From: Cyanidioschyzon merolae
Lineage: Eukaryota
DNA: 64,000 nt
Assembly (NCBI GenBank): GCA_000091205.1
Contig: AP006499.2
Direction: 5' to 3' (one strand)
The translations under genes and the position numbers were made by a program. Positions within the stretch are counted from its first letter, which is position 1. Each line of letters begins with the position of its first letter. The notes under the pieces are model-generated. The model saw nothing but the letters and a program-made list of their open reading frames with translations, searched no databases and was not told the origin of the DNA. This document shows positions 1-60,761 of the stretch, one piece after another.

Positions 1-1018
1 CGCAAGGCGGTTTCGCATAATCCACTGGAAGCGATCTCCACGATGACTAAAGACCGAGTCCGAGGCACTTTTCTATGCGAAGAGAAGAGACAGGAGCTCC
101 TGGGGGCATACCCCGTGTAACATATCTCGCTGATGTCGCATGCCGTTCCGTTGATGGCCACCAAAATAGGAGGTTTTTTTCTCGACCGGAATTGCTTATC
201 TTACGAGACATGTTGCGTGAGCTTCCGTCATGAGCTTGTGCACAAGCCTCCGATAGACGACGTTGGGTCTCCCTTCATCTTCTGTTGGCTGGCGAGAATT
301 GCTGCACCATCGAATCGCTTTGTAAGAGAAAATCGATAAGTTGGAGGATGTGTGATTTGAGCGTGCTTCATGTCAGTAAAGCAGAAGCATGCGGACGTGT
401 GCATACGCATTGGATGAACCATTCGGCTCTTTTAAGGATCTTTTTTTTGAGGGTGTCGCCGAATCCGGTTCATCCCAGGCACGGTACGCGTTCCAGCGCC
501 ACTGCGTCGGGCGGAGCCACACTGGGGATACGATCGAGCATACGAAAACGACGTATGCGTCCGCAATCCCTTACTGCTTCACTGCGCACGCCACTGCTGT
601 AGACTAAAAATACGTATGGAGAAAAGTCGAAATGCAGCCCGAGAGCCAGCAGTTCCGTTTTCCATGATGATCCTCTGCTCCCGTTCGTGAAAGCGCAGTC
701 TGCTTCGCCGCAGCCTGTGCCGCACGACACACCGATGGCGCTGTCGCGATCCTTTCATGAGGCTGTGCCGATGCCGCTCCAAAAAGCGCAACGCACTACC
801 CATGCCTTCGTTCTACCACGATTGCAGGGGCGTTGATAAGGCACTCTTGTGGCGACCGGCACTGGGTGCAATACAAACGCACGAGCGCTGCCACTCGGCG
901 CCTTGTCTTCTGGTGCAGCAACCCGCCCGATCCTTGTTCGGCAGCGGCACAGCGCCGGTGGTGCAAACGAGGCGCTCATCGCATCCTATTCGGACTGGTG
1001 TGCGTGCTTCGATCCGTC

Positions 1019-4845: not shown

Positions 4846-6242
4846 GAGATACTCGGTCAGCGCCAGCAGCGCCAGTATGTACTGTGGCTCGCACGTGCAG
4901 CAAAGGAAAAGTTTTGGCTTCACTGTAACCAGACAATACAACGACGCACATGGAATGGGAGATTCTAGCTGGGACCCTGTATGCCCCGGGCGCACGCTCG
5001 ACTTGAGCATTTGTCTCCAAGCAATGCTCGTAAGCGGGCAGTTGAACTCTATCGGAAACAGTAGAAAGCAGCAGTTTATAAAGTTCTCTATGCAGCGTCG
5101 GCAACGCGTCGAGACTATTCATGACACGAGAACTCCGCTGGAATCAACAGAAACCAGCTATTTCAAAAGTCCTCCGTACACACCCAAGATGCTGGTAGGC
5201 ATGCCCTCGTGCTTATCTTCCTCAGGAAAAGCGGTCCAGTGAATCGGACGGAGTCGCCGCCGCCGCCGCCGCCGCCTCTACTCAGGCTAGACCATGAACG
5301 AAACCGAACAGCGATCGACCGCGGCATTATCCGCACACAGCGTCCACTACTGTATCACAAATAAAAATAGCAAAGGTCGACGACGAGCTTCGCGGTTCAC
5401 TGTATACTGTCGCTTTTCGAAGCGTCGCTTACATAGGCTCGTCTGCTCATGCGGAGGAGCGTCATTGCATGCGTGCTCGTGCTTGCACACAAGGCTGTGC
5501 CTGAGGCGTCGCTCGGCATGGATATCAAGTTCCATCCTTCGTCTCGATTAGTGTCCAGTCGAGCTGCATACTCTTTGTGACAACCAGTCTCCAGGTCGTT
5601 GTAGACGCCACATCGAACGGAGCGTCTATGATGAGGTGCTCGAGCAATCGAAGCAGCAACATCCGGTAGAAACGTAAAGCCTGCAGTTTTCCCACAATAT
5701 CGACGATAAACCTTCGCATTAGCGCTCTCCGACCGCACTCAGTGTCGCTCACGAAACTCGAGGATATCGTGCTGCTGAGAAACGAACGCTGTTCGCCTTG
5801 CTTGCCACCCTATCGCACTCAGAGAAAAACAGCACTGCACGAACACACAGTTGCAGCAGAGGAAAGGCTGGCGCCCTCGTCGAACTGTCCCTTTCGGAAA
5901 CGCTCACTTGTGCGCCTGCTCTTGGCGCATGTTACGCTCAAACCGGAGAACAGCCCTTCGGGTTTCCTCCAGCCAGAACTTGACGTTCGGTACTCGGTAC
6001 TGCTGAGCAACGTACATACCTGTACAGGTACCCATTAGGAATACAAAAGTTACCGTGGCAATTGACATTGCGCACAGTGGACGATTTGTACTGCAAAACG
6101 TGTGTCCAGGTGCGAAACGAAACACGAAACTGCGAACGAAAAAACGGACGGGAGTGTTCTGCGCCAGCGCCGCGCCGATCGTGAAGCCCTCCGTACACTC
6201 GCCGCGAATCGCAGGCTATGCTCCTGCCTGATGGGAATGAAT

Positions 6243-7598
6243 CACGGAACTGCTCGATCTAATCATGTCTTGCGAATTTTTCCAAACTTGTATCGGTATG
6301 CAGCCTCGACTTTCCAAGTGCAGCGATACTAGTTTACGGGTTCATTTGTCGATTTTAGGATGATCGGTCGTGGTTTCGGTGTGGTGCATGCGACTATCTG
6401 GCGCTGGATCTCGCTAGGTGACTGGAATCAAGATCATTGGCGGCATTCGCGACTAAGGGCTCGTAACATAACCGACATGATCACAGCGTTCAGACGTGCA
6501 AGCCTCCAGGATTCTCCTTTTATTACGTGTTGTATACGCGAATCATAATCTTCATTCACGTTTCCGATCTTTCTGTTTCAAGGCAAGTTGGTTGTGCAGC
6601 AATGCGCTCCGCTGGATTGGCGATGAAGGGATCTCGACGTCGTCTCATTACGACTTGCAGAATATGTTATTTCAATCGCTCACTGGACTTGCAAACTCAA
6701 ATAAGCGATCCCTGGTCGAAAGACAAACACCCTAATCTTCGCGCCCGTCGACGAGACGGTATGCGGCACCAGCACCCTGATACCTCGCACGGGACAGGCT
6801 GCCAGAGGCTCCCGAGTCGCCTGTTCGCAAGCGCAGAAAAGCGCCCTGGACGCTGGGTTCAGTCGTCGCAGCGACCGCTGCCGGTGTAGCGCTCGTCACC
6901 GCTTTGCATGGAGTGAGCGTGCATCGCTCAATATACTTCGACTTGTCCTTCGAGCGGCGCTTTCCTTCGGGTAGTTGCTTCATCGTGGACAACATCGCGC
7001 TCCACGTACCGTCTACCGAGAGGAACAGCGTACGCTTCCATGTAAAACAGGCGGCGTGCTCCCCGAGAGGATCGCCCAGCACAAGCCCGTGATCGCTGCG
7101 TGCGACACTGGGCTCGGAAATGGAGCACGGCATCCAAGGCAGCCTTCTTCATTCGTCAAGGGCATGTACTGAGCGACGAGGCAAGCGTGCGCACGCCACT
7201 GGGTGCTTCTCCAGTGAGAACGTACGGCGTACGTGTGAGAGCACCTGATCACAGTTTCGTGTTACCGCTGCGAAGGACGCCACGAGTCTCTATGAAGACA
7301 AAATGAAAATCGCGAGCGAAGCAACGTTTCCAATTCCAGTCTGTGCATGGAATGCGTTGTCAACAGCGCGCAGCGACGGCTTCGGGGCCTGAACGCTGCC
7401 ATCACCATCGGTCGACTGCTGGCATCGAAGCAGGCGGGACACCAGAGACCAGCGTATATCAACATCTGATGCAAGAACTAGGAACAAGGACCCGTCGCAG
7501 AGGAGGCCCGCAAAGGCCGGTGTTGATGACGGGCGGAAGCGACGCTGACGTTCGATAGTACGTCCGAGTTGGAGGACCCGTTCCATGTTATTTTGCTA
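6243..7598. repeat. R-family dispersed repeat, copy R1 (1356 bp). It is about 99% identical to 23336..24691 and in the same orientation
   Basis: Identity is visible by eye from cacggaactgctcgatctaatcatgtcttgcgaattttt... through ...cgttcgatagtacgtccgagttggaggacccgttccat, with only scattered SNPs (gtatcggtatgc vs gtatcgatatgc, actagttt vs actggttt). The ORF track gives the same peptides at both loci. Confidence 0.9.
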
Positions 7599-7745
7599 TC
7601 GGTTGAGTATCTCCGAATCGGTTCCCTATGAAGCAACGACGTGCCCGGCATTGGCGGGATCTGGAGCACCAGATGCGCGCACGACTTCACTGCGTCATCG
7701 TATCCTACATATGGCGCGCTGCGGTGACGTCGAGGGTTCGCTGCA

Positions 7746-8492: not shown

Positions 8493-9524
8493 GGTTAGCG
8501 CTGCAGACAACGATTGTTTCAGCTATGGTTAGTATGGGCAGGGTTGCGCGTATGGTGACTCTGCGGACGAGTGCAGAGAAAGCGGACCTGAGTCCAAGAT
8601 TCCCGGACTCTGTGCACGAACGAAGCCAAAACCTTCGCGGAGCGGCCTCACTGGTGGACACTCGTGAACCGCATATTTTCTGAATCTTTTGACGGTATTG
8701 ACCACCTGGAAGATGACCGGCATCGCGTGAATCGATGCGCAGGATTCCATAGTATTTTTCCAGATAGAATACTGGGGCACGCAGATTCATACAGCTGGCA
8801 TCTCATGCAGCGTGCCTTAGGGTGATGTCGTGCAGTGCTACAAATTCCGAGTGCGTGCTGCGGAGATCTTCGTAAGCTGAAAGAGGCAACGCGATTTTGC
8901 TGGAACAGGGGTTCCATGGAAAATCGAGATATCGAGCACCTGCCCTGCCGATGATGGCACTGGCCCGCCTTGACGTGTTCTTGGAACACTGCGACGCCAT
9001 TTGATCAGGATTGCGTAAAGAACACGCTGGAGCTCTGAACCGCACTGATCGCTGCTGAAATATCGCCCTGGATTCTGGGTCTGTGGTTTCGGCCAGAACG
9101 ATCGTCGATGGAAAATTTTCCTCGTGATACTACCCCAGAAGCAGTCTTAAATGCAGAACCCTGATGCCTGGGCTAACTGTACAAGCGCGCCTTTCATTTT
9201 TGTTCCTTCGTCCCGCTCGTATTCAACGAATGGAGTCTATTCCGTGGACCGAAGAGAGATGGTGGGAAATTTTATACTATCATAACGTACTTGCGAAGAA
9301 TGGCATTCACTCTACAAGTCACTCATTCCGCGATCATCAGTGGGTTATTGAGCAAAGCTGCTCGTCGTCCTTGTTCTCGTCGTCGTGCTCTTATCACGGA
9401 TTCTGTTCTACTCTGTGCCCATCGTCACCTACTCGTCAATCTTTTTAACTCGATATGTTTTCTTAAAAATAGCATAACAGAATCCATGGGATGTGAAGTG
9501 TCCACACCGTTGATATGAACCGCG

Positions 9525-11453
9525 ATGAACGTACATGAATGGACAAAGAAGTACGCACACTGTCATAGGAGACCGTCACGCAGTGAACTACTCAATATCC
9601 ATCTAGTATTAGAACGCGAATGCGTATCCCAGGAGGCAGGCGGCATCGTTTCGCTCGAGGAGACCTCGTTCAGGGGAAACGGTAGCGCCGCACAGTGGTA
9701 CGCAAAGAGGGGCAAACCGCTGTTTGTAAAACAGGTACTCTCGAGCACTCCAACAACATTAGCCCTTGCGGATTTTCAATCGTAGAGTTACGACGAAATC
9801 GCCAAATGAGCAAGATCGTTCAGCACCACTCCATTAACTGAAGCACGCTTCATGGTGCCTGCTTCTCAAAGTCTTCTCGCTGCCCGTATGACACTGCCGC
9901 TTTCCAACACTCGAAAGCAGCCAGGGAGTGCGTGGCTCAGATCGACATTGACAAGCACTTCGTGCCAGCGTATTCTGCCTGGTTCAATACAAACCAATGT
10001 ATCTTCTCTGTTGTCATACGCCATTTTGATGTTCTAAGACGCATGGACGAATCGTTTGCAACCGTGGCGTCGCTCGTCATCAAGTCGTTGTGTACCTTTG
10101 CCAGCCGTGAACTACGGTGCTGCCCCTGTGCTCTTGCGGGGCAGCAATCGAAAAGATTTGCCTCGGTCAGTGGATATATGCTGGTGACGGCGACGGTGAC
10201 GAGCTTGTAGTTAAGGCGTAGTGGATATACAAAGACGAACGGAGAGCTTCGGTGATGCTGCCAAACTAGTACTTCTGAATTCCGCGAAGAAATCAGGTAT
10301 AGAGCATGTCGATTACATGCGTGTCGCCCCGGCACGTAGAGGAAGCAGGTTACTATTGCACTAGTCTCCGCGAGCAACAAGGAAGCGTTCTCACGACCTC
10401 GCGCAGAGCGCTGGCAGAGCTTGATGAAGATTTCTCGCTTAGAGGGAGGAAGTGGGAAGGGTTTTTAAAGAATGATAGAGGGCAACAGAGTATCGAGCTG
10501 CAAAGCCTTTGTCAAAAATTGGCATGTGTCGCGCGACGAGACTCATGTTCAGGTGTTCAGGATAGATGAAGAGCAAGACTTTATGATCAGTGTGGATCCC
10601 GGATTCAACAACTTAATCGCTGTAGCTGTCCCTCTACATCCAGAGGACAGAGCTGAAAATCTGAACGGCGTGAAGTTGTACCAGATCAACTTTTCCAGGC
10701 CTGGGTACCAACAAGAGTCGGGTATGGCAGACTCAAGGCGGCATACCAACAACTTGAATGATTGTGTCAGGACTGGTCTCGACGCTGTGTGCACCGTGTC
10801 GTGCAGCGTGCGCTGCTTTGCACGCTTCATTTAGAGAGTACATCAGCGTAAAAGTGGCTCGTGCGGACGATCTTTGGCTGGAGTATGCGACTTCGTGCTA
10901 TGACCGCCAATGGATTGGGGTTTACTGAGGCAGGGAACGTGCGTCCGCCAACGTCTTCAATGAGTTGGACAAAGAAATGACCGATACGTATTATCGTTTG
11001 GCGTCAGCCTATCACGCAAGACGTGCTGAGGCGCGAAAGGAGTGCATCTCTGATCCTTTGATGAGCGCGTTCAACGAGTGCACGAATCGATGCTGCACGA
11101 CTCGCGTCGATGAGTTCAGGACTGCATTCATGCATCAGGGGCGCGGCCGCACATTGGAGTAGGCAGAGAAGGGGCGCGTGAAGAAGAGACGGACGCACGA
11201 GGTGGTATGCGGTAAGCTGATCGAACGTCAGGTGACGAGGGAATCAAAATTGAGAGGCTTCCCATGTCGTACTTCCACCGGCAAGCATGCGCGCAGGCAC
11301 TCTCTGCACCAAAGCTTGAAAGCCTCGATCAACCTGCGAAATTGTTCCGTGCTTCCGGAGCGCCCAGCGCCTTTGTGTCGAGCAGATAATCGAGGGAATC
11401 GTTTATTGGTGAGGTCGGGGATTTTGCTGACACACACGGAATACTTTCGATAA
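9525..11453 (+). mobile_element. degenerate Fanzor/TnpB-like (IS200/IS605 OrfB, RuvC-fold) element, copy D. It is pseudogenised and split over 5 or more frames
   Basis: ORF 10472..10834 contains VQVFRIDEEQDFMISVDPGFNNLIAVAVP, the RuvC-I G-I-D-P-G block with Asp intact. ORF 11178..11453 contains KHARRHSLHQSLKASINLRNCSVLPERPAPLCRADNRGNRLL. That is a degenerate RuvC-III DFNAAINIRRCAxL...ANF block in which the Asp is replaced by Ser. ORFs 9525.., 9932.., 10306.. and 10965.. cover the N-terminal and linker regions in other frames. Confidence 0.6.
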
Positions 11454-23211: not shown

Positions 23212-23335
23212 AGCAGGAAAGTGCTCGAAACGTTCATAATTCATCTGGATATGTTTTTAGTCGCTTTAGTAGGTTTCCGCTGGGATCCGAGAAACGCACA
23301 CGCATACCCTACACTTGTGTCGGATTGAAATGGAG

Positions 23336-24691
23336 CACGGAACTGCTCGATCTAATCATGTCTTGCGAATTTTTCCAAACTTGTATCGATATGCAGCCTC
23401 GACTTTCCAAGTGCAGCGATACTGGTTTACGGGTTCATTTGTCGTTTTTAGGATGATCGGTCGTGGTTTCGGTGTGGTGCATGCGACTATCTGGCGCTGG
23501 ATCTCGCTAGGTGACTGGAATCAAGATCATTGGCGGCATTCGCGACTAAGGGCTCGTAACATAACCGACATGATCACAGCGTTCAGACGTGCAAGCCTCC
23601 AGGATTCTCCTTTTATTACGTGTTGTATACGCGAATCATAATTTTCATTCATGTTTCCGATCTTTCTGTTTCAAGGCAAGTTGGTTGTGCAGCAATGCGC
23701 TCCGCTGGATTGGCGATGAAGGGATCTCGACGTCGTCTCATTACGACTTGTAGAATATGTTATTTCAATCGCTCACTGGACTTGCAAACTCAAATAAGCG
23801 ATCCCTGGTTGAAAGACAAACACCCTAATCTTCGCGCCCGTCGACGAGACGGTATGCGGCACCAGCACCCTGATACCTCGCACGGGACAGGCTGCCAGAG
23901 GCTCCCGAGTCGCCTGTTCGCAAGCGCAGAAAAGCGCCCTGGACGCTGGGTTCAGTCGTCGCAGCGACCGCTGCCGGTGTAGCGCTCGTCACCGCTTTGC
24001 ATGGAGTGAGCGTGCATCGCTCAATATACTTCGACTTGTCCTTCGAGCTGCGCTTTCCTTCGGGTAGTTGCTTCATCGTGGACAACATCGCGCTCCACGT
24101 ACCGTCTACCGAAAGGAACAGCGTACGCTTCCATGTAAAACAGGCGGCGTGCTCCCCGAGAGGATCGCCCAGCACAAGCCCGTGATCGCTGCGTGCGACA
24201 CTGGGCTCGGAAATGGAGCACGGCATCCAAGGCAGCCTTCTTCATTCGTCAAGGGCATGTACTGAGCGACGAGGCAAGCGTGCGCACGCCACTGGGTGCT
24301 TCTCCAGTGAGAACGTACGGCGTACGTGTGAGAGCACCTGATCACAGTTTCGTGTTACCGCTGCGAAGGACGCCACGAGTCTCTATGAAGACAAAATGAA
24401 AATCGCGAGCGAAGCAACGTTTCCAATTCCAGTCTGTGCATGGAATGCGTTGTCAACAGCGCGCAGCGACGGCTTCGGGGCCTGAACGCTGCCATCACCA
24501 TCGGTCGACTGCTGGCATCGAAGCAGGCGGGACACCAGAGACCAGCGTATATCAACATCTGATGCAAGAACTAGGAACAAGGACCCGTCGCAGAGGAGGC
24601 CCGCAAAGGCCGGTGTTGATGACGGGCGGAAGCGACGCTGACGTTCGATAGTACGTCCGAGTTGGAGGACCCGTTCCATTTTATTTTGCAA
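23336..24691. repeat. R-family dispersed repeat, copy R2 (1356 bp). It is about 99% identical to 6243..7598 and in the same orientation
   Basis: See R1. The boundaries are where identity with the R1 flanks is lost (gaaatggag|cacggaactgctcg on the left and ccgttccattttattttgc|aaggggtacagc on the right). Confidence 0.9.
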
Positions 24692-25374
24692 GGGGTACAG
24701 CGCCGTCTGCTGAATACCATTGAAGACTTGAGCGAGCGTCACGCGATACTGTCGTGTGCAGTGGAAGACACTGAAAGCGCGCGGCATTGGACGAGCACCA
24801 CTTGCCTCCCACGGAACGCGTACGATTATTGCCGGCGATCGATGCTCCCTTCCATGTGTCTCGCTGGAGAAGCCAGAAGCGCGCAGAATCTACAGACCGT
24901 GGCAGTGCTGCATGCGGAGTACCCGTGGATAGCCACCTGCGTCACACGGTATCTTTGTACGACTGGAGCAGCGCGTTTTCTGGAGAACAGATCCGGTGCA
25001 ATGGTCTGGATGGTAAGCGATCTCGCAAGACCGAATCGTTACCGTATTGCAGACTCGGCCACAGGTATACGACGCTGCAAAGAACAACCTTTTTTCCGAG
25101 TTATCTGAATGCACATTGCACCAAGTTCGTACTCAAACAACGAGTCCTCTACACAAGATACTCGAAAGCAGCTCGCACATTAAACGTGAATGCTGAACCT
25201 CCGCGACTCGACATACTTGCAGTGCCTCCGAAACTACGGATACGCTCTCTGCATCATGTGCGAACTACCTCGGGAACGTTACGCACAGCAAACGTGTGCG
25301 CTGATTGACCAGCATTCGACATGCTTGCCGTGCTTCCAACACAAACTGTCGCGACACACGACGCTGCCCGGATA

Positions 25375-26823: not shown

Positions 26824-27177
26824 GACCGCTTCTCGGAACGTAACCGGCGACACACGGCGAAACCAGGAGGCTTTCAAACTGGCCTAGAGAAGAACGCCTT
26901 CATACGCAGGTGCCCGATGAAAAAAGATTCGCACGCCCACACCCCTGGAAACAAACGTCTTTTAAAAGAAAAAAGTTGCTGCCAGTGGTACAGCAGTGGC
27001 AAACACGCCCTATACAAGAAGTCACCAACTGACTTGCAGACGCCTCCCAGTTTTTTTTCGACCGGCCGCCTACTACTGGTTTCAACTTTTTCTCATATAA
27101 TGCCACTTTGAGAGGTTGTCCAATAAAGTTCCCTCTTGTCGACTCTGAAGGTTTTTTCTCCATCGCCGCACATCTCC

Positions 27178-29287
27178 TTATACATTGATCGCGGCATGAA
27201 AGCCACGGTTCACAAACTCCATACGTTTCCTGCCATCTTTGGTTGTACTTGTCAATGCAAGTAGTCCACGAACTTTCGCCATCCTTTCCATATGCTCTTC
27301 CGTCAGCGGACCGTATTTTGCTATTTCCTCAGGGCTCCGCTGACACTTTTCCATCTCCACTCCCTGAAGTGTACAACCCAGCTAATGGTGTGTATAGGAC
27401 GTTCGGAACTCATCCATCGGTATTGTAACAAAACGCCGTGCACACTCTTTGAATGTTCTTGTCGTTGGAGCTGGCGTAGTCCCTTTTTGGGTCATCTAGC
27501 GCCCTGCTCCGTACGCCACTACCAGCCTCTGATTTTCATCCTCCTTCAAGGCGCTCAACGCATTGAAAAAATTCGCGAACGCCCGCTGCTTCCCGCATTA
27601 CATATTCATACGCAAACGAACCCACCGAGGCTTTGTATACTCCTCCCACAGCGCATCCCAATGGGCAACACGAACTTCCATGAATTTCCGAAAAGCTTCA
27701 AAGTCCGCTCTTCGGCTCGCTCAAAGCTTCCAGGTGATCCTTCATTCCTGCATTCCGTGTCTCGATTCTCTTCCTCGCATTCATGATTCCCGATTCTCGA
27801 TAGTATCTCGCTCACGAGAACCTCAAAAGACGCATATCTTTCTGACGTAAGTTGCCGTTGTTAGCAACTTCTGCACGCTTGGGTGCAGCGATGGTTACGA
27901 TATTCGTATTCCCAGGGTTCGTGCCAATGACAAAATCGTTATCCTCTACATCCTGCGTGGCAAGATACGCCTCCTTCTCATCTCCACGCTTCGTCACGGC
28001 CGCAGCCGAGGGCGGAACTCGACGATCTGCCTCCAAACGCCGATAGTGAACACACTTGGATACTTCACCGGTTTCGATCATCCTAGTGAATACCTTTTGT
28101 TTGCTCGTATTGAGAAGTTTGAAATTGAGGATATTCTTCCAGTACGTCTCACGGTTTTCGCCGGAGAATTCCCGCCTGCTGGCATTGACCTCCGGACTGG
28201 TCTCCCTCATGATGCCGTGAAGGATTCTGGAGTCGATAGTCACGAAATGTGGCTTGATGTTCCACAATGGAACTACGTTGAAACGCTTCCCCATTAGGGC
28301 AGCCTTCCGTCTCTTCCATTCTCCATTTCTCTCCTCTCTCAGCTTCATCTCTGCCTTGCGTTCGAGTTCTCGGTCCAAAAACACGAAATAGCGTAACATG
28401 AGGCGATAGTATCTTTCCTTATCTTTTTTCAACGCTGATATCTTTTCTGCTGGATTTGCCAGCCCCAGTACCGCACGATGCTCTTTAATAGCCGCACGGA
28501 TGACGGAATCTTTATTCTTTCTCCTGTGTGACGCCATCTCTCCGACGAATTCGGTCTCATCTTTATGTTGGCAATCGTTCGTGATGCCATCGATACTGGC
28601 CCATATCCCCTGGCAAGAGAGACCCCGGTGCAGCGCAAAGATGGAGCGTATCAGAAAGCATTCGAGGTTCAAGGTCATAGGGTCCCTCAGGTTCGTGAGG
28701 TACTTCATCGCCCCATGGCAGTAAATATTCCCGTCACCGCTGTATCGAGTACCCTCGCAGCGGCATTCCGCGAAGTTTTCCTGGAGGACATGCACTCGCT
28801 CATTTCTCCAAGACGTTTCCGCTGTGCCAACCATCAGGTGGCGAATAACGGTCTTGTCGAAAAATTCCACCCGCACCTCGACCGTTTTGATGTCCGTCAC
28901 GTCTTCGTTCATCTTCCTCACCAAATGCATTATTCTTGCAAAAGCCTTGCAATCGCTCATGCAGTAGTGCGCGATACGGTCTCTGAGATCCTCCCGCAAA
29001 TTTTGCTTCTACGGATTCATGATATGCTTGAGACGACAGGCTTTCGGTACTATTTCGACGTAGTGTCGTCTTTCCTCGAGCCATTGGCGTCGGGCCGCCT
29101 GCCTTAGCTTCTTCGTCTCATCCTGTTCCTCTCTGCTCTGCACTGTTTTTTCTTTGTTTCCGCCTGCCGGCGGTAATAGCCCTCTAGGATCCTCCACTTC
29201 CATGTCCAAACTTCCCTTTTTCATTTTTGAAAACGAATGCACTTTGAACTCCCCTGCTATAAACCCCGAAAACTCACTTGAATACAC
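27178..29287 (-). mobile_element. degenerate Fanzor/TnpB-like element, copy A. It has the longest surviving ORF (395 aa) but mutated catalytic sites
   Basis: ORF 27812..28999 ends ...[42 protein letters not shown]. That is the RuvC-I block with Asp replaced by Asn (GTNPG instead of G-I-D-P-G). ORF 27178..27360, MAKVRGLLALTSTTKDGRKRMEFVNRGFHAAINV, is the RuvC-III block with Asp replaced by Gly and an immediate stop. Frame breaks occur at about 29009/28999, 27812 and 27606-27360. The N-terminal ~350 aa aligns with the N-terminal fragments of copies B and C. Confidence 0.65.
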
Positions 29288-29699
29288 TCACTTGAGGGTT
29301 GAAACAAAACTGAAATAAAAGACTGTATTTTTCGACGACTTCAACATCGTCGCAGCTTGTACTTTAGAACGAGAAGTCAACGAATATTCAGGATCGCGTT
29401 TCGCTTCAACGGCGAGATGCGCGTCGTGTCCCATGTATACCAGGTATGGAGGTGCGTCTATCGACCGCGCTACATAGAACAAATAACAGAGACTAACGAT
29501 CAAGTATCAACGATATAGAGATTTATTCCCCCTCGATGATAAATGTGAAGAGAGGAAAAAGCTTTCAGTATTGTCGAAGGCCTACCCTCGAGGCGGAAGG
29601 TCCCGCGAGCCGGACAAGTCTGCCAAGCTTGCGCTCTGTGCGACTCTGCAGTTGCGGGTACTTTAGCGAGACCTAAGCTGAAACTCGTACGCAACGCAA

Positions 29700-29930
29700 T
29701 TCTTTCTGGTGCGAGGGGCAGCTAAGCTCCGTCTGGGCGTCGCCCTGGTCGCAGTGGTCTCCAAGTATATCGCTTCGCGCTGCCATAGGCAGCACGTCTA
29801 TCTGCGCAGCTTGCTTGCCCCCAGAATCATGATGCATCCCGATTAGGTATTGCGTGAACCACACCTCGAGCAGACGCCCTCCGTAGTACGGCAAAGCCGT
29901 TGTATCCCCATGTTGCATCTGCTCCAATGG
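29700..29930. repeat. ~230-bp segment related to 48190..48400 (about 75% identity, same orientation)
   Basis: ccgtctgggcgtcgccctggtcg...gtgaaccacacctcgagcagacgccctccgtagtacggcaaagccgt here, versus ggcgtctgggcatcgccctgacc...catgaaccacacctcgagctggcgccttccgtagtatggcgaaaccgc at 48.2-48.4 kb. Minus-strand ORFs 29673..29927 and 48032..48424 share PYYGGRLLEVWF / PYYGRRQLEVWF and QAAQIDV / QAAQIDL. It lies about 400 bp beyond the 5' end of Fanzor-like copy A. Confidence 0.7.
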
Positions 29931-30743
29931 TTTCGTCGTTATTGTGGGTGCTTAAAGCAGACACTCGGCGTTCCTTAGAACTCAAGGAACTACCAGCATA
30001 TCCAAAATGAAATATAAGTTATGGAACTTGAAGGTACGTTGCATCATGCTGGAAGCTTTCCCCACAGCCATGATCCATCCCGCAATCTGGGCCCCATGCG
30101 CAATGAAAGCGTTTTGCCATCAAAAAACGCGACCCGTACCGAACGTTCACGACATTTTTAAACGAATGCACAACTAGCTGCGAAGGCGCAATTCTTGTAT
30201 GCACTTGCTGTCCAGCGCAGCGACAGTTTGGAGCTACCAAGCGCTTGGACCTGGAAGCGTCTTCCGCATCTTTGCGATTTCGAGTGCACGGCAGAGCGGT
30301 GAAGGAAAAGCGTCTAGAACGAAGCTGCGTGTGAAACGCAAGCGTCCCAGCGTACGATGGTACCAGCGAGCGGCTCAGGAGGTCACTTTCAGGCCAAGGC
30401 GGTGTGATAGCTATCGACTCGAAAACGCTCGCAACTGTTCGAGACCCAGCGCCCTTTAAACTCGTGGTCGAAGCACTGGTGCTTTCTGCGTTTTCTGCTG
30501 TGCTGCCACTTGGCTGCTGTTCTCGTCAGTTAACTGGACCAGTTCGCCAAAGTACCAGGTTGTGGCACTGTGCTTGCAGCTGGGAGCGCGGATCGAATCG
30601 TCTGAACCACGTCACCAGCGGCACGCTCTTGTCCGTCTTGTTTATCTCGCGCGTCGTTGCGAGAGCTCGCGGAGTTGCATGGCACACGCTTTGATAGAGG
30701 TCTGGACTGGGGCGAGCGCATCCCCGCCGAGCATCTTCAACTA

Positions 30744-33687: not shown

Positions 33688-34150
33688 TGAAGTGTTCGGT
33701 TCGTAGTTGACTGAGGTAAGATGCAGCACGCAGTGTGTTAGCGCGATGCGCTGCACAAACGCCCGTGACGCGCCCTAATACCACGCCGCTGGACTCAGAA
33801 GCGGCTGCAACGGTTCTTTTCCGTGCAGATCTCGAGTGTCTCTTTGCGGGTGGATTGTTTTTCGCTGCCTGTACAAGCGCTGGTGACAAGCGTTCCTTCA
33901 AGCGTCCTTATCGAGTTAAAGAAGCGGTTCGCAGGAGAGAAGTTGTGCAGCGACAGCGCAACGCAGTTGGAGCGCTTTACATGAGACATGATTGTATCTA
34001 AATGGAACAACAGAAACAAAAAATCCCTTGCCCCCAAGGCGTTGCCGTTCCTCCGCACTCTGTTCCTGCACGAGCGTAAGGTACCGCGTCCCAGCAGCAC
34101 GAAAACAACTGCAGCAGCTACTGGTGCCGCCACAACTTGTTGTTGCGTCC

Positions 34151-36103: not shown

Positions 36104-36399
36104 AATGAATGATGCATCGTGGTAGTCGACGAGCTGACGCGTGAGAAAGACACTGGGAAGCTGTTTTGTAGGCGCAGGGCGACCCCGGTGGCGGCGCTCC
36201 GAGCGTCCGCGGCAGGCACGATGAATACGATGCACCGGTGCCCTTCAATCGATGTTGCCTGTAGATTTTAAAGAATGGCAATTTTAGGATTGGTAATGCG
36301 TAGCAGCATCTCGAAGGGAATGGTGGTGCTTTCATGGTTCACCGACGGCAACCGGGAATCCCTTGGATTCTCGTTACACCGGTGTCAGAATAAAATGCA

Positions 36400-37300
36400 A
36401 CGGATCGTTCAAATTGGGCGTACACTGTACGCCCTGGGTATCGTTCTAGTGTCATCGACACAGGCCTGTGGAGACTTTTTCATTTCTGAGACCGCTTCCT
36501 TCATCGCCCTCTTGTCTACGGCTCGAAATGAGGCGGGCTCTCCGGTCCTTCCTGCTCGGTTGTCGGCAATGGAAAGATGTTGAAGGCAGCGTTTCAAGTC
36601 CAGATTTCGCAGATTCGGACTGCTGCCAACGCAGTTCATGCAGAGGCGGAAGTTGCGCTCTACGCTTCGCTTGCCATTTTCACCTGATTGGTAGGGAGCC
36701 ATGGTATGCGCTTCGCAACGGTGACAGTAAAATGTACTCTTGTGTTCTGGTATGCCCATTATACGTTCTGCGTCGAGGAGCCTCCTGTGGTGCGTGAAGA
36801 CTTGCTCCATAGCTCGGTACATGACAGGTACCGAGGACTCGCATCGATGCCAGCTTCCGTTTCCGTACCGAGTCCTAGACGCTTTGATGACGGTAATCGT
36901 CTGGATGATCTCTTCGACAAGCTCTCCGTCTGCTGCACACGCAAGCGGATGCTGTACAATTGGATAGAGGATTTGTTCAACGCGACATTGCCCATTAGAG
37001 AACAAGTACCCGGAAGAAAATCCAGGCTGGAGAAACATTCGAGAAAATTTGAACCGTGTACACTCACCTCATGCAAAGCGGTGATGCGCTCTGCACAGGA
37101 AGCGATCGCTGTGATGCCTGCATTCCTAGTCCAAGGCCCTTTTCCATGGAAAAGGAGGCAATGGGTGCTTCTGAAAGCATTTCCCGTTGGATATTTCATG
37201 CTGCTGTTGCGCTCAGCTTCGTCGATAGCGATAAATAGAAAAAGGAGGGATTGGTCTTTCGGATAGAATCGACGTTGATTGGACGTGACAAGTTTCGTCA
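36400..37300. repeat. R-family repeat, diverged copy R3 (about 75% identity to the central part of R1, inverted orientation)
   Basis: Plus-strand ORF 36688..37266 (...REQVPGRKSRLEKHSRKFEPCTLTSCKAVMRSA...) aligns with minus-strand R1 ORF 6732..7133 (...MKQLPEGKRRSKDKSKYIERCTLTPCKAVTSAT...). The reverse complement of 37090-37140 aligns with R1 7038-7100 (ccatg.aaaa ... gatcgct). The boundaries are approximate. Confidence 0.6.
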
Positions 37301-37489
37301 ACTTCCGGCATGAGCTTGTGAGCAAGCCGATAAAGAACGACGTGGCATAATAATCTATGTAAATGCATTGTTCATGAAACAAAGAAAATGTCTCACGACC
37401 ATGAAGGTATATATACATACTGACGAGCAGACGCCTCCGAATCTTCTTTGATCGGCGGCTTGCCTTAGGTATCAGTTTCTCCCCATACA

Positions 37490-38771
37490 CTTCGAGACTG
37501 AGAAGCTGCCCTACAAAGTTTGCTCGCGTCAGCTCATCGGGTCTTGTCTCCAGAACCGCACATCGTATGATATTGATGGCGGCGTTGAAGTCTTTGTTCG
37601 CGAACTCCATGCGTTTGTTGCCGCTGTTTGAACTCATCAATGCAAGGGTTGCTAGAACCCGCGTCCTGTGTGCCACCTGCTGCTCTTTCAGCAATCCGTG
37701 CTTTTCCATCGCCGAAGCCCTCCGCTGTGTTCTCCCTATCTCGACCATCTGGTGTGTATAACCCAGCTCATGCCTTAGATTTTTCATTTCTCAAAATGAA
37801 TGGGCTTCTTTATGCCCGTAGCTAAGGACCTTCCCCGAGGAAGAAGGACATGTTCAAGAAAAACGACATATGCCTCGGCGTGCCATCGTGTGCTGAAAGC
37901 TTCGGCAATTCGCCCCGTGGAGCGATCATTGCGTTTCAGGACAGAATACACTCCTTCAATGGGGCTGAATCACGGAGCGTATGGAGGAATGGAAGGCAGC
38001 TCTACTCCCAGATAGTATCGGCAAAATCTGGAACTCAAGGGGAATGGTAAAATACTACGTTGTTCAATAGAAGGACGTTGCCGGACTTGAGGAAAAAATG
38101 TTCAACAATTCGACAAAGTGTTCGCTGCTATTGAATGAGCCTTCTCAACGAGCGAATATGAGGACGCCAAATGAATCCACTCCAGCTAGAACAGATGATG
38201 ATGTCCTCGTTCTCCTCGAGCTCGATCTTGTATACAATGAGCTCTATCTCCGAGAAAATAAACATATACGATTGGACCGTTTCGTCTGAAGCAGTTCTCA
38301 TCGGCTGAAAAACAAACCGACGTGCCTGTGCTTCACACGAATCGAGAGGTCCCATGCATGTTGTCGCTGCGATCTCGGTGGAAGATAGCCGTTTTCGTGA
38401 ACCAGGACTGGTTTTGTATGAATGTATCCCGAGTTTCCAGGATCACACGAGCAAGCTGGTGAGAAACAGAGACACCCGCAATAACTACTATTATCGCGTC
38501 GCTTTCCTTAAAGCAATCAAGTGGTCGTTTTTCTAACATGGCCGACAACAAAGTTTTTACCAGTACCTGTTTTTGGAGCAGAGCGCGCATACCTGTTTCT
38601 TTCAGTGTTCTCGACCATCCTAGTATAGTAGTATGACTGACCTGAAGAAGGAATGCAGCCCTCGTTACCATGATCAGTAAATAATATGTATCGTGCATGC
38701 ATTTCGTCTACGATCGAATCGATACAAAGCATAGAAATGTCGATCTCGTACGATACACTGCGAAGAGGCAT
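37490..38771 (-). mobile_element. degenerate Fanzor/TnpB-like element, copy B
   Basis: ORF 36759..37787 begins MKNLRHELGYTHQMVEIGRTQRRASAMEKHGLLKEQQVAHRTRVLATLALMSSNSGNKRMEFANKDFNAAINIIRCAVLETRPDELTRANFVGQLLSLEVYGEKLIPKASRRSKK. That is an intact RuvC-III D-x-N-A-A-x-N-I block plus the family C-terminal tail. The rest of that ORF is read-through into the inverted R3 repeat. Upstream fragments are ORF 38128..38355 (...IELIVYKIELEENEDIIICSSWSGF, the RuvC-I position with the Asp lost), 38333..38698 and 38517..38771 (N-terminal region). There is a stop two codons upstream of the 37787 ATG. Confidence 0.6.
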
Positions 38772-39018
38772 TTGATGACACGCAGCAGGCGCGAAACAAA
38801 ACTGACGTGAAAGACTATAACAATATGCATATAATTGCTACAATCTGCCTTTTTTGAGACAATCGCTCCTGAACGTCCCTGTGCGCTTACCAGCGAGCGT
38901 CAGCAGGCGCGCGCCTTGTACCCAGATCCGCCGTGGGGCGCCTGTCGGAGGTCGCCGCTACGCGACCGTATCTGCGAGCCACCACGCTGACCTGCACACT
39001 GCTGCATGCGTAGACGGT

Positions 39019-42185: not shown

Positions 42186-42216
<31 letters not shown>

Positions 42217-42217: not shown

Positions 42218-42899
42218 CCAACGTGACAGCAAGGCAGCAGCGCTGCGCGCCCGCATCGTTGCCCGTCCGCAGTGACTCGGGCGTCGACGACGACGACGAC
42301 GGCGAAGAAACGGAACTCGAGTGCTGCGGGCGCGTGACGGCGGGAGCGCTGGGCGCGCGCGCGCGCTGAGATCATCTTGCCGGACTCGTCGTTTTCGACG
42401 TGCAGCAGTGAGGGTCTATCGATATATGTAGGTGGATTTGGGATTTTTGGGTCATCTTTTGGGGTGGTTCGCTTGACGCTTTGCGGTTGGAATGAAGTTA
42501 GGTTACCGTAAACGAGCTGATTCGCAGTGCCATGGAACAGGGTTCGAAAACGATCTGGTATTATGATGCAGTACACAAGGTGCACAGCGCCACGCTTCGC
42601 GTTGTTTTCCCGTGAATCATGCATTACACGAGCATTCTTCGAGATTTTTACGGCTGTGTTTCATGGAAACCCGTAGGCACAGTGATTCGGGCCGATGGAT
42701 TTACAAGAAAAACGTTCGGCCTCGTTTCTTGACGACTTGTTCACAAGCTCTTGTCGAATGTTCACTGAAATACGAAGGTAAAATAATCGACTCCGTTCGA
42801 GAGAAAAATCCAAGGCTCTATGTGGCCATGGATGAAGCGGCGTTCGATAGCAGCATGATGCCTCTTAGGGGCTATGCTGCCGGAGGCCCTGGTGTCTTC

Positions 42900-43520
42900 A
42901 GTTTTCATGGAACGGGGTCTTGGACCTCGACTTGAGTCATCGAAGCGATCGTTACCAGGGGAGCGCGCGTCACCGCTTCGCAAAAAAGGAGCATGAACGG
43001 ATCGAAATTACTCGATTTTTCCTCCAAACTGGATTTCTGTTTTCGCACTTGTTCCATCGCAGAAAACATTGCGCTCCATAAACCCTCAGTAGAATGGAAC
43101 AACGTGCGCCGGATTGTGCGATCGATAGAGAACTTGTCGGGGAATCGTCCAGAAAAAGCCCGTGATCGCTGGTACAGCGTCGAGGGCGTTATCGAAGGAG
43201 GGTATCGACCATCATCCGCTGTGCTCGTCAAGGGCATGTACCGAGTGATAAAGCGTGCCTTTATGCGCCATAGGCCGGTGCCCAGAGAAGTACATACGGT
43301 GGACATGTCGGAACGCATTCAAGTTTCGCGGCTGCGACAGATTCTATACAAAGAAGATAAAAACGAGAATCGAATCGTAGATTGCAACTTTTGCATCTGC
43401 ATGAAATGCGTAAACAACATACGGAAGCCGATTAGGTATGCCGGTAGCACTCGTATGAATATCCTTCGACTGCTGACAAAAGAGCAGGAGCAACGAGAGA
43501 ATCCGGCGGATTGAAAGCCC
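42900..43520. repeat. R-family repeat, diverged copy R4 (same orientation as R1/R2)
   Basis: Minus ORF 42905..43318 (...TRYMPLTSTADDG...RTLFHSTEGLWSAMFSAMEQV...FDPFMLLFCEAVTRAP) aligns with R1 ORFs 7013..7252 and 6732..7133 (AQYMPLTNEEG...RTLFLSVDGTWSAMLSTMKQL...IERCTLTPCKAVTSAT). Plus ORF 42993..43514 (NIALHKPSVEWNNVRR...PSSAVLVKGMY) aligns with R1 plus ORFs 6904.. and 6975.. (NIALHVPSTERNSVRF...PSSFVKGMY). The shared 16-mer aagcccgtgatcgctg is present. In R4 the two R1 frames are in one frame. Confidence 0.6.
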
Positions 43521-44470
43521 GGCATAAGAGAGAGGGGATGAAAACAGTCGTAGAAAAAGCCGGCAAACGCTGGTTCGATGACAATGTGAAGAGACCAATA
43601 CCCTTGCGCGTACACCCGAGTTAGCAAAGTGGACCGGTTCCATTCCATTCTGGAATGGGTGTATCTCAGTGCTCGCGTGTTGATGGCACTGGGAAGCGAC
43701 CCAACGTTCAATGTGTACGTCCGAGCTGGAACACCTCTTCCACGCTAGTCTGGCAAGAGAGTATCTCAGATTTCGCGTATTGCCAGAGTCGGAGCGGGCG
43801 TCCCGCGCACTACCGACGGCCCAGGGAATGCGCCTGATCACCGCATCGCAGCTACAGCTGGAGCCTGCAGCCTGATGCACAGAAGCGTGGCGCATCTGGA
43901 TCGCTACCCTGCGGCTACCGCTGCCATCGTTCTGCACCTGTGGTCCTATTGTCCATGCAGGGTACACCATTTACCACGCGACGACGGCTACTGGATACCG
44001 CGCCTACGGATGTGGCTGGCCCCCAGCCGACCACGCGTTGCATGTTGGCAGCCCGCTGTGGCATCGAAACCGCGGGTTCCGCGGCAAACGGCCGTGCCAA
44101 TGTCGCGCCCTGATCGGGCCTCGCACAGCCTGCACCAGTGTGCACGCTCCAGCACGGCGCCAGCACGGCACTTGACGTGTTCACCGGTAACCCGCCATTC
44201 AATGTTAAATGCAAATTTAGCTTATCTCGTCGTTCCATTTAGTATTTCAGCAGCACAAAACATACGAAACGCCCAGCGTCAACGCAAACGATCCCACGAC
44301 GCGATCCATGGAATGTTGTGTGCAGTGATGTGTACGCGTGAACACATGTCACGACCTAGCCAGCATCCGTCAACTGCGTACCAGGATTGAAGCTCGTCCG
44401 CGATTCGACGGACGTATTGGCATCCATAGAAACCCCGTGCGCGTTGCCGCTACTCACAGTGTCGCGAGGA

Positions 44471-59000: not shown

Positions 59001-59072
59001 GTGCCGACATATTCCTCGAGTGAAACAGGTTCAAGTCGTGCCCGGAACAGGGCTGCAAACTTGCCGTGGTAA
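56031..59072 (+). CDS. RBBP6/Mpe1-like protein. It has an N-terminal DWNN ubiquitin-like domain, a CCHC zinc knuckle, and a ~850-aa disordered tail with poly-Gln. No RING recognised
   Basis: The ORF opens at 55818, but the product starts at ATG 56031. MSAAVHYKFRSAKHFGRVQFEGDFIQLAELKVAIVEQEKLQFGEDFDLQVVDAQTQEEYYDEETLIPKNTSVIVKRVPA is colinear with the RBBP6 DWNN domain (MSCVHYKFSSKLNYDTVTFDGLHISLCDLKKQIMGREKL...DLQITNAQTKEEYTDDNALIPKNSSVIVRRIP). The zinc knuckle is CHRCGEPGHYIQHC. The remainder is S/P/R/A/Q-rich with QTQQQQQHQQQQQHQQRQ from the (CAG)n tract at 57897-57950. Confidence 0.7.
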   Translation: MSAAVHYKFRSAKHFGRVQFEGDFIQLAELKVAIVEQEKLQFGEDFDLQVVDAQTQEEYYDEETLIPKNTSVIVKRVPAGQKQGILSQIALARKNERFAEILDRSTGGTGATAGAIAAAARQVLAGNLGPSTTANTGMTGSEPVRLRRGDEDTRLASVALAAGAGDSGPNPRNIQRPGGRVTASGAMDGPPPGAQPPPGYICHRCGEPGHYIQHCTANLEGDVNIIRVKRPTGIPRSMLKTIDAPVDGGTELQLPGGKFVTLATDDREFSKEPLAVRMARLAEARAGAREDNTIASDVTTIQGSETKQPVPMDKKESETTRRQVAASDAPSESAASSPRGSTPTDSVENAQLLPADIRPDLPYFPLPGMDQKEHFFGTGELPTAREFQEVIWGIILMNRDQHPELGHDMETGTQRDVTRDSAAALQPEPRSMESAEAPSTTNERAVSAQPRPRMTASAEGESYQERRPQAHERKTPTHVQDVSKRSPTSEAQNVPERGDRDPDKSAPRSGSVANARPIPSSFKSTETANHHLDAERPRPGRRSSALQVTSMEPSGAPFGEIEYSRVSTKNQRLLPPDRKATESAQATAPNYGNSLPRKQAAFARSGKMTGNTTRPGLPLAPLQTQQQQQHQQQQQHQQRQTHVQRFQAANQHGNEAASVDKQHPLDRGQHAMQRTEPARERRQPTVAAADRNAVSRGVPTSRATSSGVTATGSTAPVRTKMPPRMPHQRPDEDTLGHRHHAASDTEQKPAQLNANLSQPQPLSVSRARERSGLGKSARHSPAPVAPALHGTTRKHPRASDSSPGTETRDSRPIPVFARLGTRAEAAASTRAPASVPQRSTTGSIGSAERRTVPPAHPPPADASQLKGKNSSPMNQQGEYLHRASVRAPPKVPEKRPAATAAVGDDKRSRNTPSSAERAAANVFERLGPAIPVPPRLAGRISSGKVSDGERGANASTGASGVVANDASKTKTNLRAVHAKQSVPMTQQKTPVPTYSSSETGSSRARNRAANLPW

Positions 59073-59149
59073 ACACAGCAACTGAATATGTTGGCGATGG
59101 TGTACCAGGAAGCGAAAACGTATCGCGAACATGGGGTAAATGAATATCC

Positions 59150-60070
59150 ACCCGGAGACATGTGCCTGCCTTTTTCGACCGGGCTCCTGCTGTCGGCTTT
59201 CGTTTTCTCCTTGCACACTTCGAACATCAGAGGCGGTGCGACGAAGTTAGGTTTCGTCAGCTCTGCGTGTCTCGTCTTGAGCGCTGCACATCTCCTGATA
59301 TTGATAGCAGCGTTGAAGTCTCGGTTCGCAGACTCCATGCGTGCAGTGCCTCTGGAGCTACTCACTCATGCAAGGAATGGTACAACTCGCGCCCTGTGTG
59401 CCACTACAGTCTCGTGATCGTCTCGTCGATGAAACACCTTTGCTCTCCGATTTCCCCTCATCTTCATCGTCAGTTGCTCTTCTTCGCTCGACGGTCGCAC
59501 AGAAGAGGATGTTTTCCGGTTTTATCGGATAGCCAGCGATGTCGGTCCTTCAGAATCCCCGAATTCCATGCTCATACCTTTCCCTTCTATTTTTATTTCT
59601 TCAAAAAAACACAGTTGTTTATGCCCTCAGATGAGGACCCTCCCGGAAGGAGACGGTCTTGCAGAAGAACGACGAAATGTGCCCTGGTATCACCGTGTGG
59701 TGAACGCTTCAGCGCTTGGCGCAGTGGCGCAATCACTAGGTTTCGTCATAGAAACGCCTGCTCTTCATAGGACTGAACCACCGAATGTACGGAGGAATAA
59801 AAAGCCGCTCTACCCTGACAGAATCAGCGATAGATCGAACGCAAGTGGAATGGAGAAATACCACAATATCCAACGGAAAGACGTCGTCAGACCTCAGGGA
59901 AAAGTCTTCAATTGTTCGATAAAATGGTTCGTGCTGTTGTATGAGCCTTCTCTACGAGCGAAACTGAGGTCGCCGAATGGTTCCACTCCCGCACGAACAG
60001 GTGGTGTCCTTGTTATCTACGAATTCGTTCGTTGAGAATATCAGTTTTTGGCGCTGATCGCATACGCTTC
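59150..60070 (-). mobile_element. degenerate Fanzor/TnpB-like element, copy C. It has an internal deletion and an in-frame stop, and abuts or overlaps the 3' end of the RBBP6-like gene
   Basis: Reverse-strand translation of 59520->59300 in one frame gives ...MKMRGNRRAKVFHRRDDHETVVAHRARVVPFLA*VSSSRGTARMESANRDFNAAINIRRCAALKTRHAELTKPNFVAPPLMFEVCKEKTKADSRS. A TGA interrupts the conserved block (the ORF-track 'M' at 59365 is the GTG that follows it). Upstream fragments in other frames (59880-60070) align with the N-terminal region of copy A (FVREWNHSATSVSLVEKAHTTARTILS ~ FVGEMASHRRKNKDSVIRAAIKEHRAVLG; VFPLDIVVFLHSTCVRSIA ~ [19 protein letters not shown]). The RuvC-I/II region is missing, a deletion of about 500 nt relative to copy A. 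Confidence 0.6.
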
Positions 60071-60761
60071 TTTCTTTCAGTATTCCTCAACTACCTGAGT
60101 TCGTATGGTATGGCTGACGTAAATGATGCATGCAGTCCTCCTTGCACTATTCAGTAAAAATATATCTCTGATAGACGATTCAATTACGATCCACACAGTA
60201 CATTGCATCGTGAGTCCGATCTCCTGCTCTGCACTGCGAAAAAAGCATTCGTTGACACGCAGGAACGTCGGAACGGAATTGACTTGAACAAATTCGCAGC
60301 TGAACATCAGCACCGATGCGCTGAGGTGAAGTGCCGCACAATGCAAAGTCGAGTGTCAGCGCTTGGCAGACGCAGTACTAGCTGCCGCAACGACCACAGG
60401 TTCTCGAGTTCGTGTCTGTGTGTCTGTGTGTGTGTGTCGGTAACCGTGACGTTCGAAACCTTCCGGAACACGCTCGCCGCAACGTGTTTCGAGTTCGTCG
60501 TCCCGTACTGACGTTTTCTGACGACAGAGTAGCGAGCTGGCGTTGACGTTTTGTTCGTGCCGTTTGGAAAGCGGCACCGGAAGCCGAGCCTTCCCCACGA
60601 CGCCCAGTTCCGCTGCGTGTTGTTGCGGTTCCGCGTAGCAGCTCGTTGAACGAGAAAACTGGGGTAGGGGCGCGTCAACGAGCACAGAGGTGGGTCAGGT
60701 TTCGCTTGTGAATAGCCGCACGCAGCCTGCACAACGTCTGCAGGTCGAGTGAACCGTCATT

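Follow-up and report, generated by a model that had tools for sequence, protein, structure and literature searches.

The R repeat beside a Fanzor1 relic of Cyanidioschyzon merolae is very probably an internally deleted mariner-type transposon

The closest described systems to the repeats considered here are PUl-1 and PGv-1, Tc/mariner elements that contain both a Mariner-type transposase and Fanzor1 and that show TA duplications (Bao and Jurka, 2013; PMC3627910). In the same study, CMe-1/CMe-1A was described as a Fanzor1 family of Cyanidioschyzon merolae with about 150 copies and a 3169-bp consensus (supplement 2); no terminal repeats or target duplications were found for CMe-1A, which was left unclassified. 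Here, we explore a window of 64,000 nucleotides (nt) of C. merolae DNA (contig AP006499.2 of assembly GCA_000091205.1), which holds several copies of a repeat termed R together with four Fanzor relics (A to D), of which A, B and C belong to the family of the published CMe-1 protein. One degenerate copy of the repeat, R3, lies directly against relic B. We conclude that R is very probably an internally deleted, non-autonomous derivative of a transposon of the Tc1/mariner superfamily (DDE_3, IS630-like) that carried Fanzor1, that relics B and C are analogous derivatives in a CMe-1 sister lineage, and that the junction between R3 and relic B arose once, the composite being copied afterwards.

Deleted non-autonomous DNA transposons are well known, for example Ds from Ac or the deleted mariner/Tc1 elements. 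They keep both ends, lose the middle and use transposase supplied in trans, and one master gives rise to many copies sharing a breakpoint. R is like these Ds/Ac-type derivatives in that its ends are kept, its middle is lost and one breakpoint is shared, and unlike them in that two genes are affected by the deletion, which leaves behind a chimeric reading frame of transposase and Fanzor.

Structure of R and its putative parent element

A preliminary description of the window had placed an inverted R copy at about 36.4-37.3 kb. Self-BLAST and protein-level matches confirm this copy, R3, and its inversion relative to the copies R1 and R2, and the following parts can be recognized.

36375..37345, minus strand: R3, a degenerate R element with a 5' DDE_3 transposase relic and a 3' Fanzor1 C-terminal relic
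36885..37352, minus strand: transposase-derived reading frame of R3, seen in translation (IAIDEAERNSS…GNVALNKSS)
36519..36753, minus strand: Fanzor-derived tail of R3, identified by translation, the family tail consensus, Pfam and alignment with the second open reading frame (ORF2) of the element L038 described below
36375..36401, minus strand: right terminal inverted repeat of R3 (…GTTGCATTTTATTCTGACACCGGTGTA), with 3 mismatches to the 27-nt family consensus in an alignment of 28 R 3' ends

The transposase-derived frame contains the first and second catalytic-Asp motifs of DDE_3, both decayed. Positions 138-226 of the transposase profile match R3 at 36969-37235 (E 2.8e-7), and residues 1-238 of the R consensus match it at 36568-37333. 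In the tail, EHKSTFYCHRC…RNFRLCMNCV (about 36628-36753) is the TNB zinc ribbon, and past a frameshift NAAFNI (about 36579-36596) is the RuvC-III motif. R3 lacks the left 400-410 nt or so, which comprise the left repeat and the helix-turn-helix (HTH) region in other copies, and upstream homology to those copies is missing. The blastn match of R3 to R1 spans 36545-37210 with 63.3% identity, protein-level and end alignments extending it to 36375-37345, and that of R4 to R1 spans 42849-43109 with 65.0% identity; both values lie below the 70-75% identity to R1/R2 that had been given for R3 and R4.

The other copies of R in the window are located as follows.

6217..7606, plus strand: R1, full-length R, with the left repeat at 6217-6243 and the right repeat at 7580-7606
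23310..24699, plus strand: R2, full-length R, with its own diverged outer repeat halves
42729..43663, plus strand: R4, an R element without left end, with a transposase relic from about 42729, a Fanzor tail at 43290-43511 and the right repeat at 43637-43663
1..335 (about), minus strand: R0, the fifth copy of R, truncated at the start of the window and overlooked in the preliminary description

A full-length R is about 1.39 kb long. Read in three frames, it has a two-part structure, in which a transposase-like part (vaiDEa.f…GYA..G…DNiAlHk) is followed by a part of the form E-x-x-[ST]-T-x-x-C-x-x-C…LCM.CV…NAA.NI. When in-frame R fragments were used in an exhaustive profile search, 345 proteins were recovered, nearly all of them short pseudogene ORFs. 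Two intact relatives among them, P0133 and P0122, match Pfam DDE_3 at 3e-29 and 4e-18, respectively, and possess IS630/Tc3-type HTH domains, while the R members P0073 and P0079 match PF13358 at 3.6e-4 and 0.011. Within the window, the transposase profile matches R1, R2, R3 and R4, and in R1 the match consists of HTH positions 20-74 and core positions 166-234. The idea of R as one short TnpB-like protein was rejected in view of the strong DDE_3 match. The peptide PVKGMYRAMKQ, tried as the third catalytic motif of the transposase, was also dropped, as it matches the Fanzor ORF far better. A word-indexed protein search with the R alignment returned only the window's own ORF, and single-sequence searches of Pfam and PDB gave nothing useful, whether the query was an ORF of the window or the frame-corrected translation of relic A, R3 or R4.

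For the second part of R, a consensus of 35 tail fragments reads …PVIVRYGTGRGNGGGH.GEPSVPVKGMYRAMKQAF…EHLTTVKCHRC…DRNFRLCMKCV…NRDLNAAINILRLL…ERPAYLKP. It contains the C-terminal signature of Fanzor and TnpB proteins, [TS][TS]-x-x-C4 zinc finger-x(5,50)-RD as defined in PMC3627910, in the form EHLTTVKCHRC…RNFRLCMKCV…NRDLNAAINI. PF07282 (Cas12f1-like TNB) is the top Pfam family among the tail members, with 3/35 matching (best E 8e-6), and hhalign aligns the R tail colinearly with the CMe-1 family profile (E 0.007). The ends of the element are likewise defined by comparison of copies. Consensuses of 27 nt, built from 19 left ends (TACACCCGTGTCAGATTAAAATGGAAC) and 28 right ends (TACACCCATGTCAGAATAAAATGGAAC), are TA-ended and identical to each other at 25/27 positions; in an inverted-repeat scan of R1 alone these terminal repeats are not visible. 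Homology among the copies begins TA-CAC… and ends …GTG-TA, and L038 is alike in this respect.

L038 (23-3637) and its twin L040, both metagenome contigs, carry an apparently intact 3.6-kb element composed of ORF1, a 126-nt gap and ORF2, which is a candidate active element. ORF1 encodes a 329-aa DDE_3 transposase (E 4e-28) and ORF2 a 786-aa Fanzor with GLDPGRVN (RuvC-I), VWEHLTTRKCHRC, DRNFRICEHC and LRNRDFNAAINIL. The element is bounded by inverted repeats of 27-28 nt (TACAACCGTG…GGAAC // GTTCC…GGTGTA), which the R repeat consensuses resemble. The R consensus aligns with residues 145-275 of ORF1 (E 9e-27), and the R tail profile aligns with ORF2 at 590-667 (3e-24) and 715-770 (1e-14). Overall, the R consensus covers ORF1 from residue 145 to about 250 and ORF2 from 590 to 770. 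The sizes also agree, since taking about 2.1 kb out of 3.6 kb leaves the observed length of R (1.39 kb). Relative to R, the Fanzor of L038 has an insertion of about 47 residues between the two cysteine pairs of the zinc ribbon. PUl-1 and PGv-1 resemble the L038-type parent in gene order, with Fanzor1 following the transposase on the same strand, and in having TA ends and terminal inverted repeats that measure about 24-33 nt. R differs from them as an internal deletion with only the N-part of the transposase and the C-part of Fanzor, in a red-alga-like genome and with a distinct Fanzor lineage.

These homologies and terminal repeats, which are directly observed, suggest the following history. 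The parent would have carried a transposase gene followed by a Fanzor1 gene in the same orientation, both enclosed by TA-ended inverted repeats of 27 nt, and this two-gene transposon would have used TA sites for cut-and-paste movement. The loss of about 2.1 kb would have joined the N-part of the transposase (the HTH and the first two catalytic-Asp motifs, just past DNIAFHK) to the last 195 or so residues of Fanzor. The Fanzor piece thus retained would begin at PVIVRYGTGRGNGGGH and include the zinc ribbon and the NRD.NAAINI motif, and neither end of the transposon would have been lost. The short R copy may then have spread by means of transposase supplied in trans. R is predicted to be non-autonomous, because its transposase frame is broken and Fanzor sequence has taken the place of the stretch with the third catalytic residue. 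Every R copy inspected is broken by stops or frameshifts into short ORFs, and all the copies seen, about 65% identical to one another, appear to be old pseudogenes. R also lacks the N-terminal 590 or so residues of Fanzor, RuvC-I included, and by its predicted coding content it cannot encode a nuclease. As for the earlier proposal that R is a non-autonomous partner of Fanzor elements, its non-autonomous nature and its connection with Fanzor hold, but it is not a partner of the neighbouring relic, since its own Fanzor 3' fragment comes from a different Fanzor1 lineage than relic B.

The two full-length copies need a separate comment. R1 (6230-7596) and R2 (23323-24689) are 99% identical over 1367 nt in blastn, and they had been regarded as either recently active or recently converted. 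The block of 99% identity (about 6238-7597 in R1) stops inside the terminal repeats, the outer repeat halves are diverged, and the left ends differ (TATGCTCCTGCCTGATGGGAATGAA vs. TACACTTGTGTCGGATTGAAATGGA), each resembling the family consensus. Young R1-like copies were sought elsewhere and none was found, all other R copies being about 65% identical. The similarity seems to fit gene conversion between two old insertions 17 kb apart rather than a young active subfamily, because the block stops inside repeats whose outer halves have diverged; the second of the two options is thus supported and the first is not.

Contact of R3 with relic B and the census of R copies

37385..38820, minus strand: relic B, an N-terminal transposase relic (38432-38689) and a CMe-1-like Fanzor1 tail (37443-37775)

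The unit boundaries of relic B were set from its paralogs L044, L048 and L004. It matches positions 602-691 of the Fanzor profile (E 8.5e-25) and positions 14-100 of the transposase profile (E 2.8e-4), and its tail (37419-37772) is 72% identical to positions 2736-3092 of the CMe-1A consensus over 359 bp. This tail is without a zinc ribbon, as in CMe-1, whereas the lineage of R keeps the zinc ribbon. R3 had been reported within about 200 nt of the end of the relic B tail, and the contact is indeed close. The relic B peptide LSLEVYGEKLIPKASRRSKK maps to 37443-37502, R homology starts about 100 nt downstream of it on the same strand, and 170 nt lie between the last Fanzor profile residue of B and the first R consensus residue of R3. 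The 342-aa ORF 36759..37787, formerly described as mostly read-through into R3, runs from the Fanzor tail into R3 as stated; the part from 37352 to 36885 is R3's own ancestral transposase frame (IAIDEAERNSS at 37200-37232). A left terminal repeat was sought at the B/R3 junction, where local alignments were no better than those of shuffled sequences (P 0.38 and 0.22).

The preliminary description mentioned a second juxtaposition, between R4 and a weak Fanzor-like remnant in ORF 43344..43970. The supposed Fanzor peptide GMEPVHFANSGVRARVL maps to 43596-43646 on the minus strand, inside R4, where it overlaps the right terminal repeat 43637-43663; the Fanzor-family profile gives nothing at this site with filters off and E up to 10, and the ORF matches only antisense R sequence. 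What had been taken for a remnant is R4's own right terminal repeat read in antisense, and of the two juxtapositions described only one exists, that of R3 and relic B. Like R3, R4 is without its left 400 nt or so, and it is followed by a short duplicate.

43669..43775, plus strand: tandem duplicate of the last 105 nt or so of R4, found by alignment, by a repeat scan and by a blastn match of R1 7520-7585 to 43677-43742

The duplicate includes a right repeat in decayed form, is flanked by the same 6 nt (TCTCAG) as R4, and is best read as an old local duplication.

The preliminary description had also proposed a census of R copies for enrichment beside Fanzor/TnpB-like sequences. A metagenome scan with the R consensus protein yielded 79 loci, and 45 distinct R copies were left after duplicate contigs had been removed. 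The expectation was taken from the background at 1-10 kb around R copies, in which CMe-1-type relics occur at about 0.63 per 10 kb.

CMe-1-type relics less than 250 nt from R: 4 observed, 1.33 expected, P 0.046, uncorrected
CMe-1-type relics 250-1000 nt from R: 2 observed, 3.9 expected, not significant

Within 1 kb of R, 6 relics were observed versus 5.2 expected, which shows no general enrichment, and the small excess below 250 nt is mainly due to one composite. Three of the four close cases share one arrangement, namely a B-type tail and then R on the same strand. The window aligns with L004/L013 in a single alignment of 1854 nt (68%) that covers B, the junction and 400 nt at the start of R, and L048 has B and R in the same order, with further loss in R. 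The flanks of the L004/L013/L048 composites share nothing with the host genes of the window, and an orthology of L004 and L048 with the window locus was rejected, the flanks being unrelated. For the same reason the three B-R loci are paralogs. The observed shared junction suggests that R and B came together a single time and that the pair was afterwards copied jointly, so as to occupy at least three loci. Apart from this composite, nothing points to a general mutual attraction between R and CMe-1. A different arrangement is seen in L009/L012 (10001-12842), where, unlike in B and R3, the 3' end of an R copy faces that of a nearly full CMe-1-type Fanzor relic, tail to tail, at a distance of 133 nt.

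The opposite orientation of R3 had been thought to argue against a fixed composite structure. The argument fails, since R3 and B are co-oriented head-to-tail and the B-R pair seems to have been copied as a fixed composite. One R would have landed beside the right end of B, or would have lost its left end against that end, and either transposition with hybrid ends or a segmental duplication would later have multiplied the pair. R3 beside a Fanzor relic is ordinary transposon debris and not a new partnership.

CMe-1-type relics and their transposase-bearing relatives

26956..30121, minus strand: relic A, a complete CMe-1A, 83% identical to the 3169-bp consensus end to end (profile E 9e-163)
59045..60288, minus strand: relic C, a derivative of the B type, in which a CMe-1-like tail is combined with a transposase relic (59763-59930), with no adjoining R
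9267..11450, plus strand: relic D, a transposase relic (9267-10048) directly upstream of a Fanzor relic (10340-11450)

The published CMe-1/CMe-1A family and the relics of the window agree well: relic A is a full copy, the tails of relics B and C share 72-75% identity with the 3' part of the CMe-1A consensus, and the same protein motifs occur. In contrast, R belongs to a different lineage, its Fanzor keeping the C4 zinc ribbon that CMe-1 is without. The frame-corrected translation of relic A has 61 homologs, which show the motifs GADPGNTN, VDEFRTSYTHH and NRDFNAAINI. A structure model of the CMe-1-type Fanzor is poor (predicted local distance difference test score 54.9); the six PDB entries that match it best are nevertheless all Fanzors (GtFz at E 2.5e-3, SpuFz and PpFz among them), with TM-scores of only 0.15-0.28, and the next match of this low-confidence model is at E 1.2, more than an order of magnitude away in E-value. 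Relic A itself has a 395-aa open N-terminal ORF, a C-terminal half with four stops and a frameshift, and GTNPGN as its RuvC-I motif where relatives show GADPGN. A solo copy of the first 540 nt or so of CMe-1A, 71% identical, is found at 48082-48600 on the minus strand, and also at 29648-29899; it matches the separate short element TE-N2_CMe described in PMC3627910.

The transposase relics of B, C and D have a counterpart in L045, a contig (1-4090) on which an intact 301-aa DDE_3 transposase (112-1017) is followed by an intact 702-aa CMe-1-type Fanzor (1205-3313; profile E 6e-231). Although CMe-1A was unclassified in 2013, relatives of the same Fanzor are thus found here directly behind a DDE_3 transposase, in L045 and in relics B, C and D. 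No transposase remnant was found in the six frames of the CMe-1A consensus, and because of this the link of CMe-1 to a transposase runs through its relatives and not through CMe-1A proper. Relics B and C would be deletion derivatives of R's kind, built on a CMe-1-like sister lineage. Relic D, a fourth Fanzor relic of the window that the profile scan detected and the preliminary description overlooked, appears to be a decayed full two-gene element within the window. Judged from their sequences, L038 and L045 appear to be intact elements of the PUl-1/PGv-1 type, and R, B, C and D relics of that type.

The window as a whole has a G+C content of 55% and carries intron-free eukaryotic genes densely on both strands (ARF1, Brix, DWNN and others). 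The hot-spring metagenome contig L001 is colinear with window positions 24681-38959 at 99.15% identity. Immediately downstream of R3, the segment 33992-36103 has the maximal G+C content of the window (62%) and contains a 703-aa ORF rich in Arg, Ser and Ala without recorded Pfam match, with a 400-aa ORF on the opposite strand. A 32-nt stretch is common to 12958-12989 and 42186-42217, inverted and with 97% identity; at 42.2 kb it is a short ACGC-type repeat (peptide THARTHARTHA).

Alternative explanations and significance

Then, could R and the Fanzor relics be unrelated repeat families, piled into the same tolerated intergenic gaps as nested transposon islands, so that their adjacency is pure chance? 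The census is in line with this, as the number of relics within 1 kb of R matches the expectation from the background density, most R copies are without an adjacent relic, and relics A and C are without R beside them. However, R itself holds transposase and Fanzor sequence, which relates the families by element type, and as a complete account chance piling is contradicted by the homology between the R tail and the Fanzor ORF; moreover, the B-R3 junction is inherited across three paralogous loci, which are not independent cases. We therefore regard this explanation as unlikely, although the first meeting of B and R probably did occur by chance. The order of Fanzor tail and then transposase could instead be the remnant of a natural tandem or two-gene unit and not the product of two elements brought together. 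L045 could be cited for it, with a second transposase predicted near 3300 and the Fanzor stop at 3313, as could the recurrence of a Fanzor tail followed by R on the same strand. But the B tail (CMe-1-like, no zinc ribbon) and R3 (zinc-ribbon lineage) represent different lineages, the terminal repeats of R and L038 enclose transposase and then Fanzor and not the reverse, and R3 is without the HTH region, which a gene native to the downstream position should have retained, all of which makes such a unit very improbable.

Still further from the evidence is the idea that R encodes, or once encoded, a genuine in-frame fusion of a transposase DNA-binding and partial catalytic domain with a Fanzor zinc-ribbon tail, selected for instance as a regulator or repressor of transposition. 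Several copies (L009, L023 and L005, for example) do read the whole consensus in a single frame without frameshift, and the architecture is the same in all copies. Yet every copy inspected is interrupted by stop codons, the identity of about 65% among copies gives no sign of constraint, and a common origin in one deleted master copy accounts for the shared architecture, so that selection for a fusion seems extremely unlikely. A functional role of another kind may also be imagined. R and the B/C derivatives both keep the last 90-195 or so Fanzor codons together with the right end, which might be needed in cis as a guide-RNA scaffold for a Fanzor acting in trans, and the hybrid of B and R, whose left end comes from one lineage and whose right end comes from the other, would then have been mobilized as a chimeric element. 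We consider this unlikely as a whole, and the guide-RNA module stays a speculation because no conserved RNA structure was seen at the R 3' end: RNAalifold predicted no conserved pairs in 28 aligned ends, which come from decayed copies, and Rfam gave nothing relevant in the window.

The preferred reading, namely that R is an internally deleted derivative of a transposon with transposase and Fanzor1, has points against it as well. L038 comes from a different metagenome and shares only about 37-44% protein identity, so that the deletion is deduced by comparison rather than observed, and the window's own organism has yielded no intact element of the R lineage. The breakpoint can be placed only to within about 25 codons, where two reading frames are both open in different copies. 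Telling a TA target duplication apart from the repeat would require empty sites. No Fanzor or TnpB turned up when profiles of the Fanzor family and of the R tail were searched against the PDB sequences of solved structures. Finally, the second transposase of L045 is frameshifted and predicted within about 10 nt of the Fanzor stop, the contig ending inside this region, and gene order or tandem arrays may be more complicated than assumed.

The accepted working of Fanzor/TnpB systems is unaffected by these findings on R. What they remove is an apparent puzzle, since the repeat beside the Fanzor relic is debris of the same element type. A Fanzor1 inside a mariner-type transposon is already known, and R, B, C and D would be decayed members of that group. 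For CMe-1, close relatives are now found directly behind a transposase of the mariner/IS630 type. A second Fanzor1 lineage, in addition, would once have been present in red-alga-like genomes, where it survives only as deletion derivatives of about 1.4 kb with 27-nt terminal repeats. Apparently intact two-gene elements of both lineages occur in metagenome contigs, and their Fanzors (786 and 702 aa) would lend themselves to a test of RNA-guided nuclease activity.

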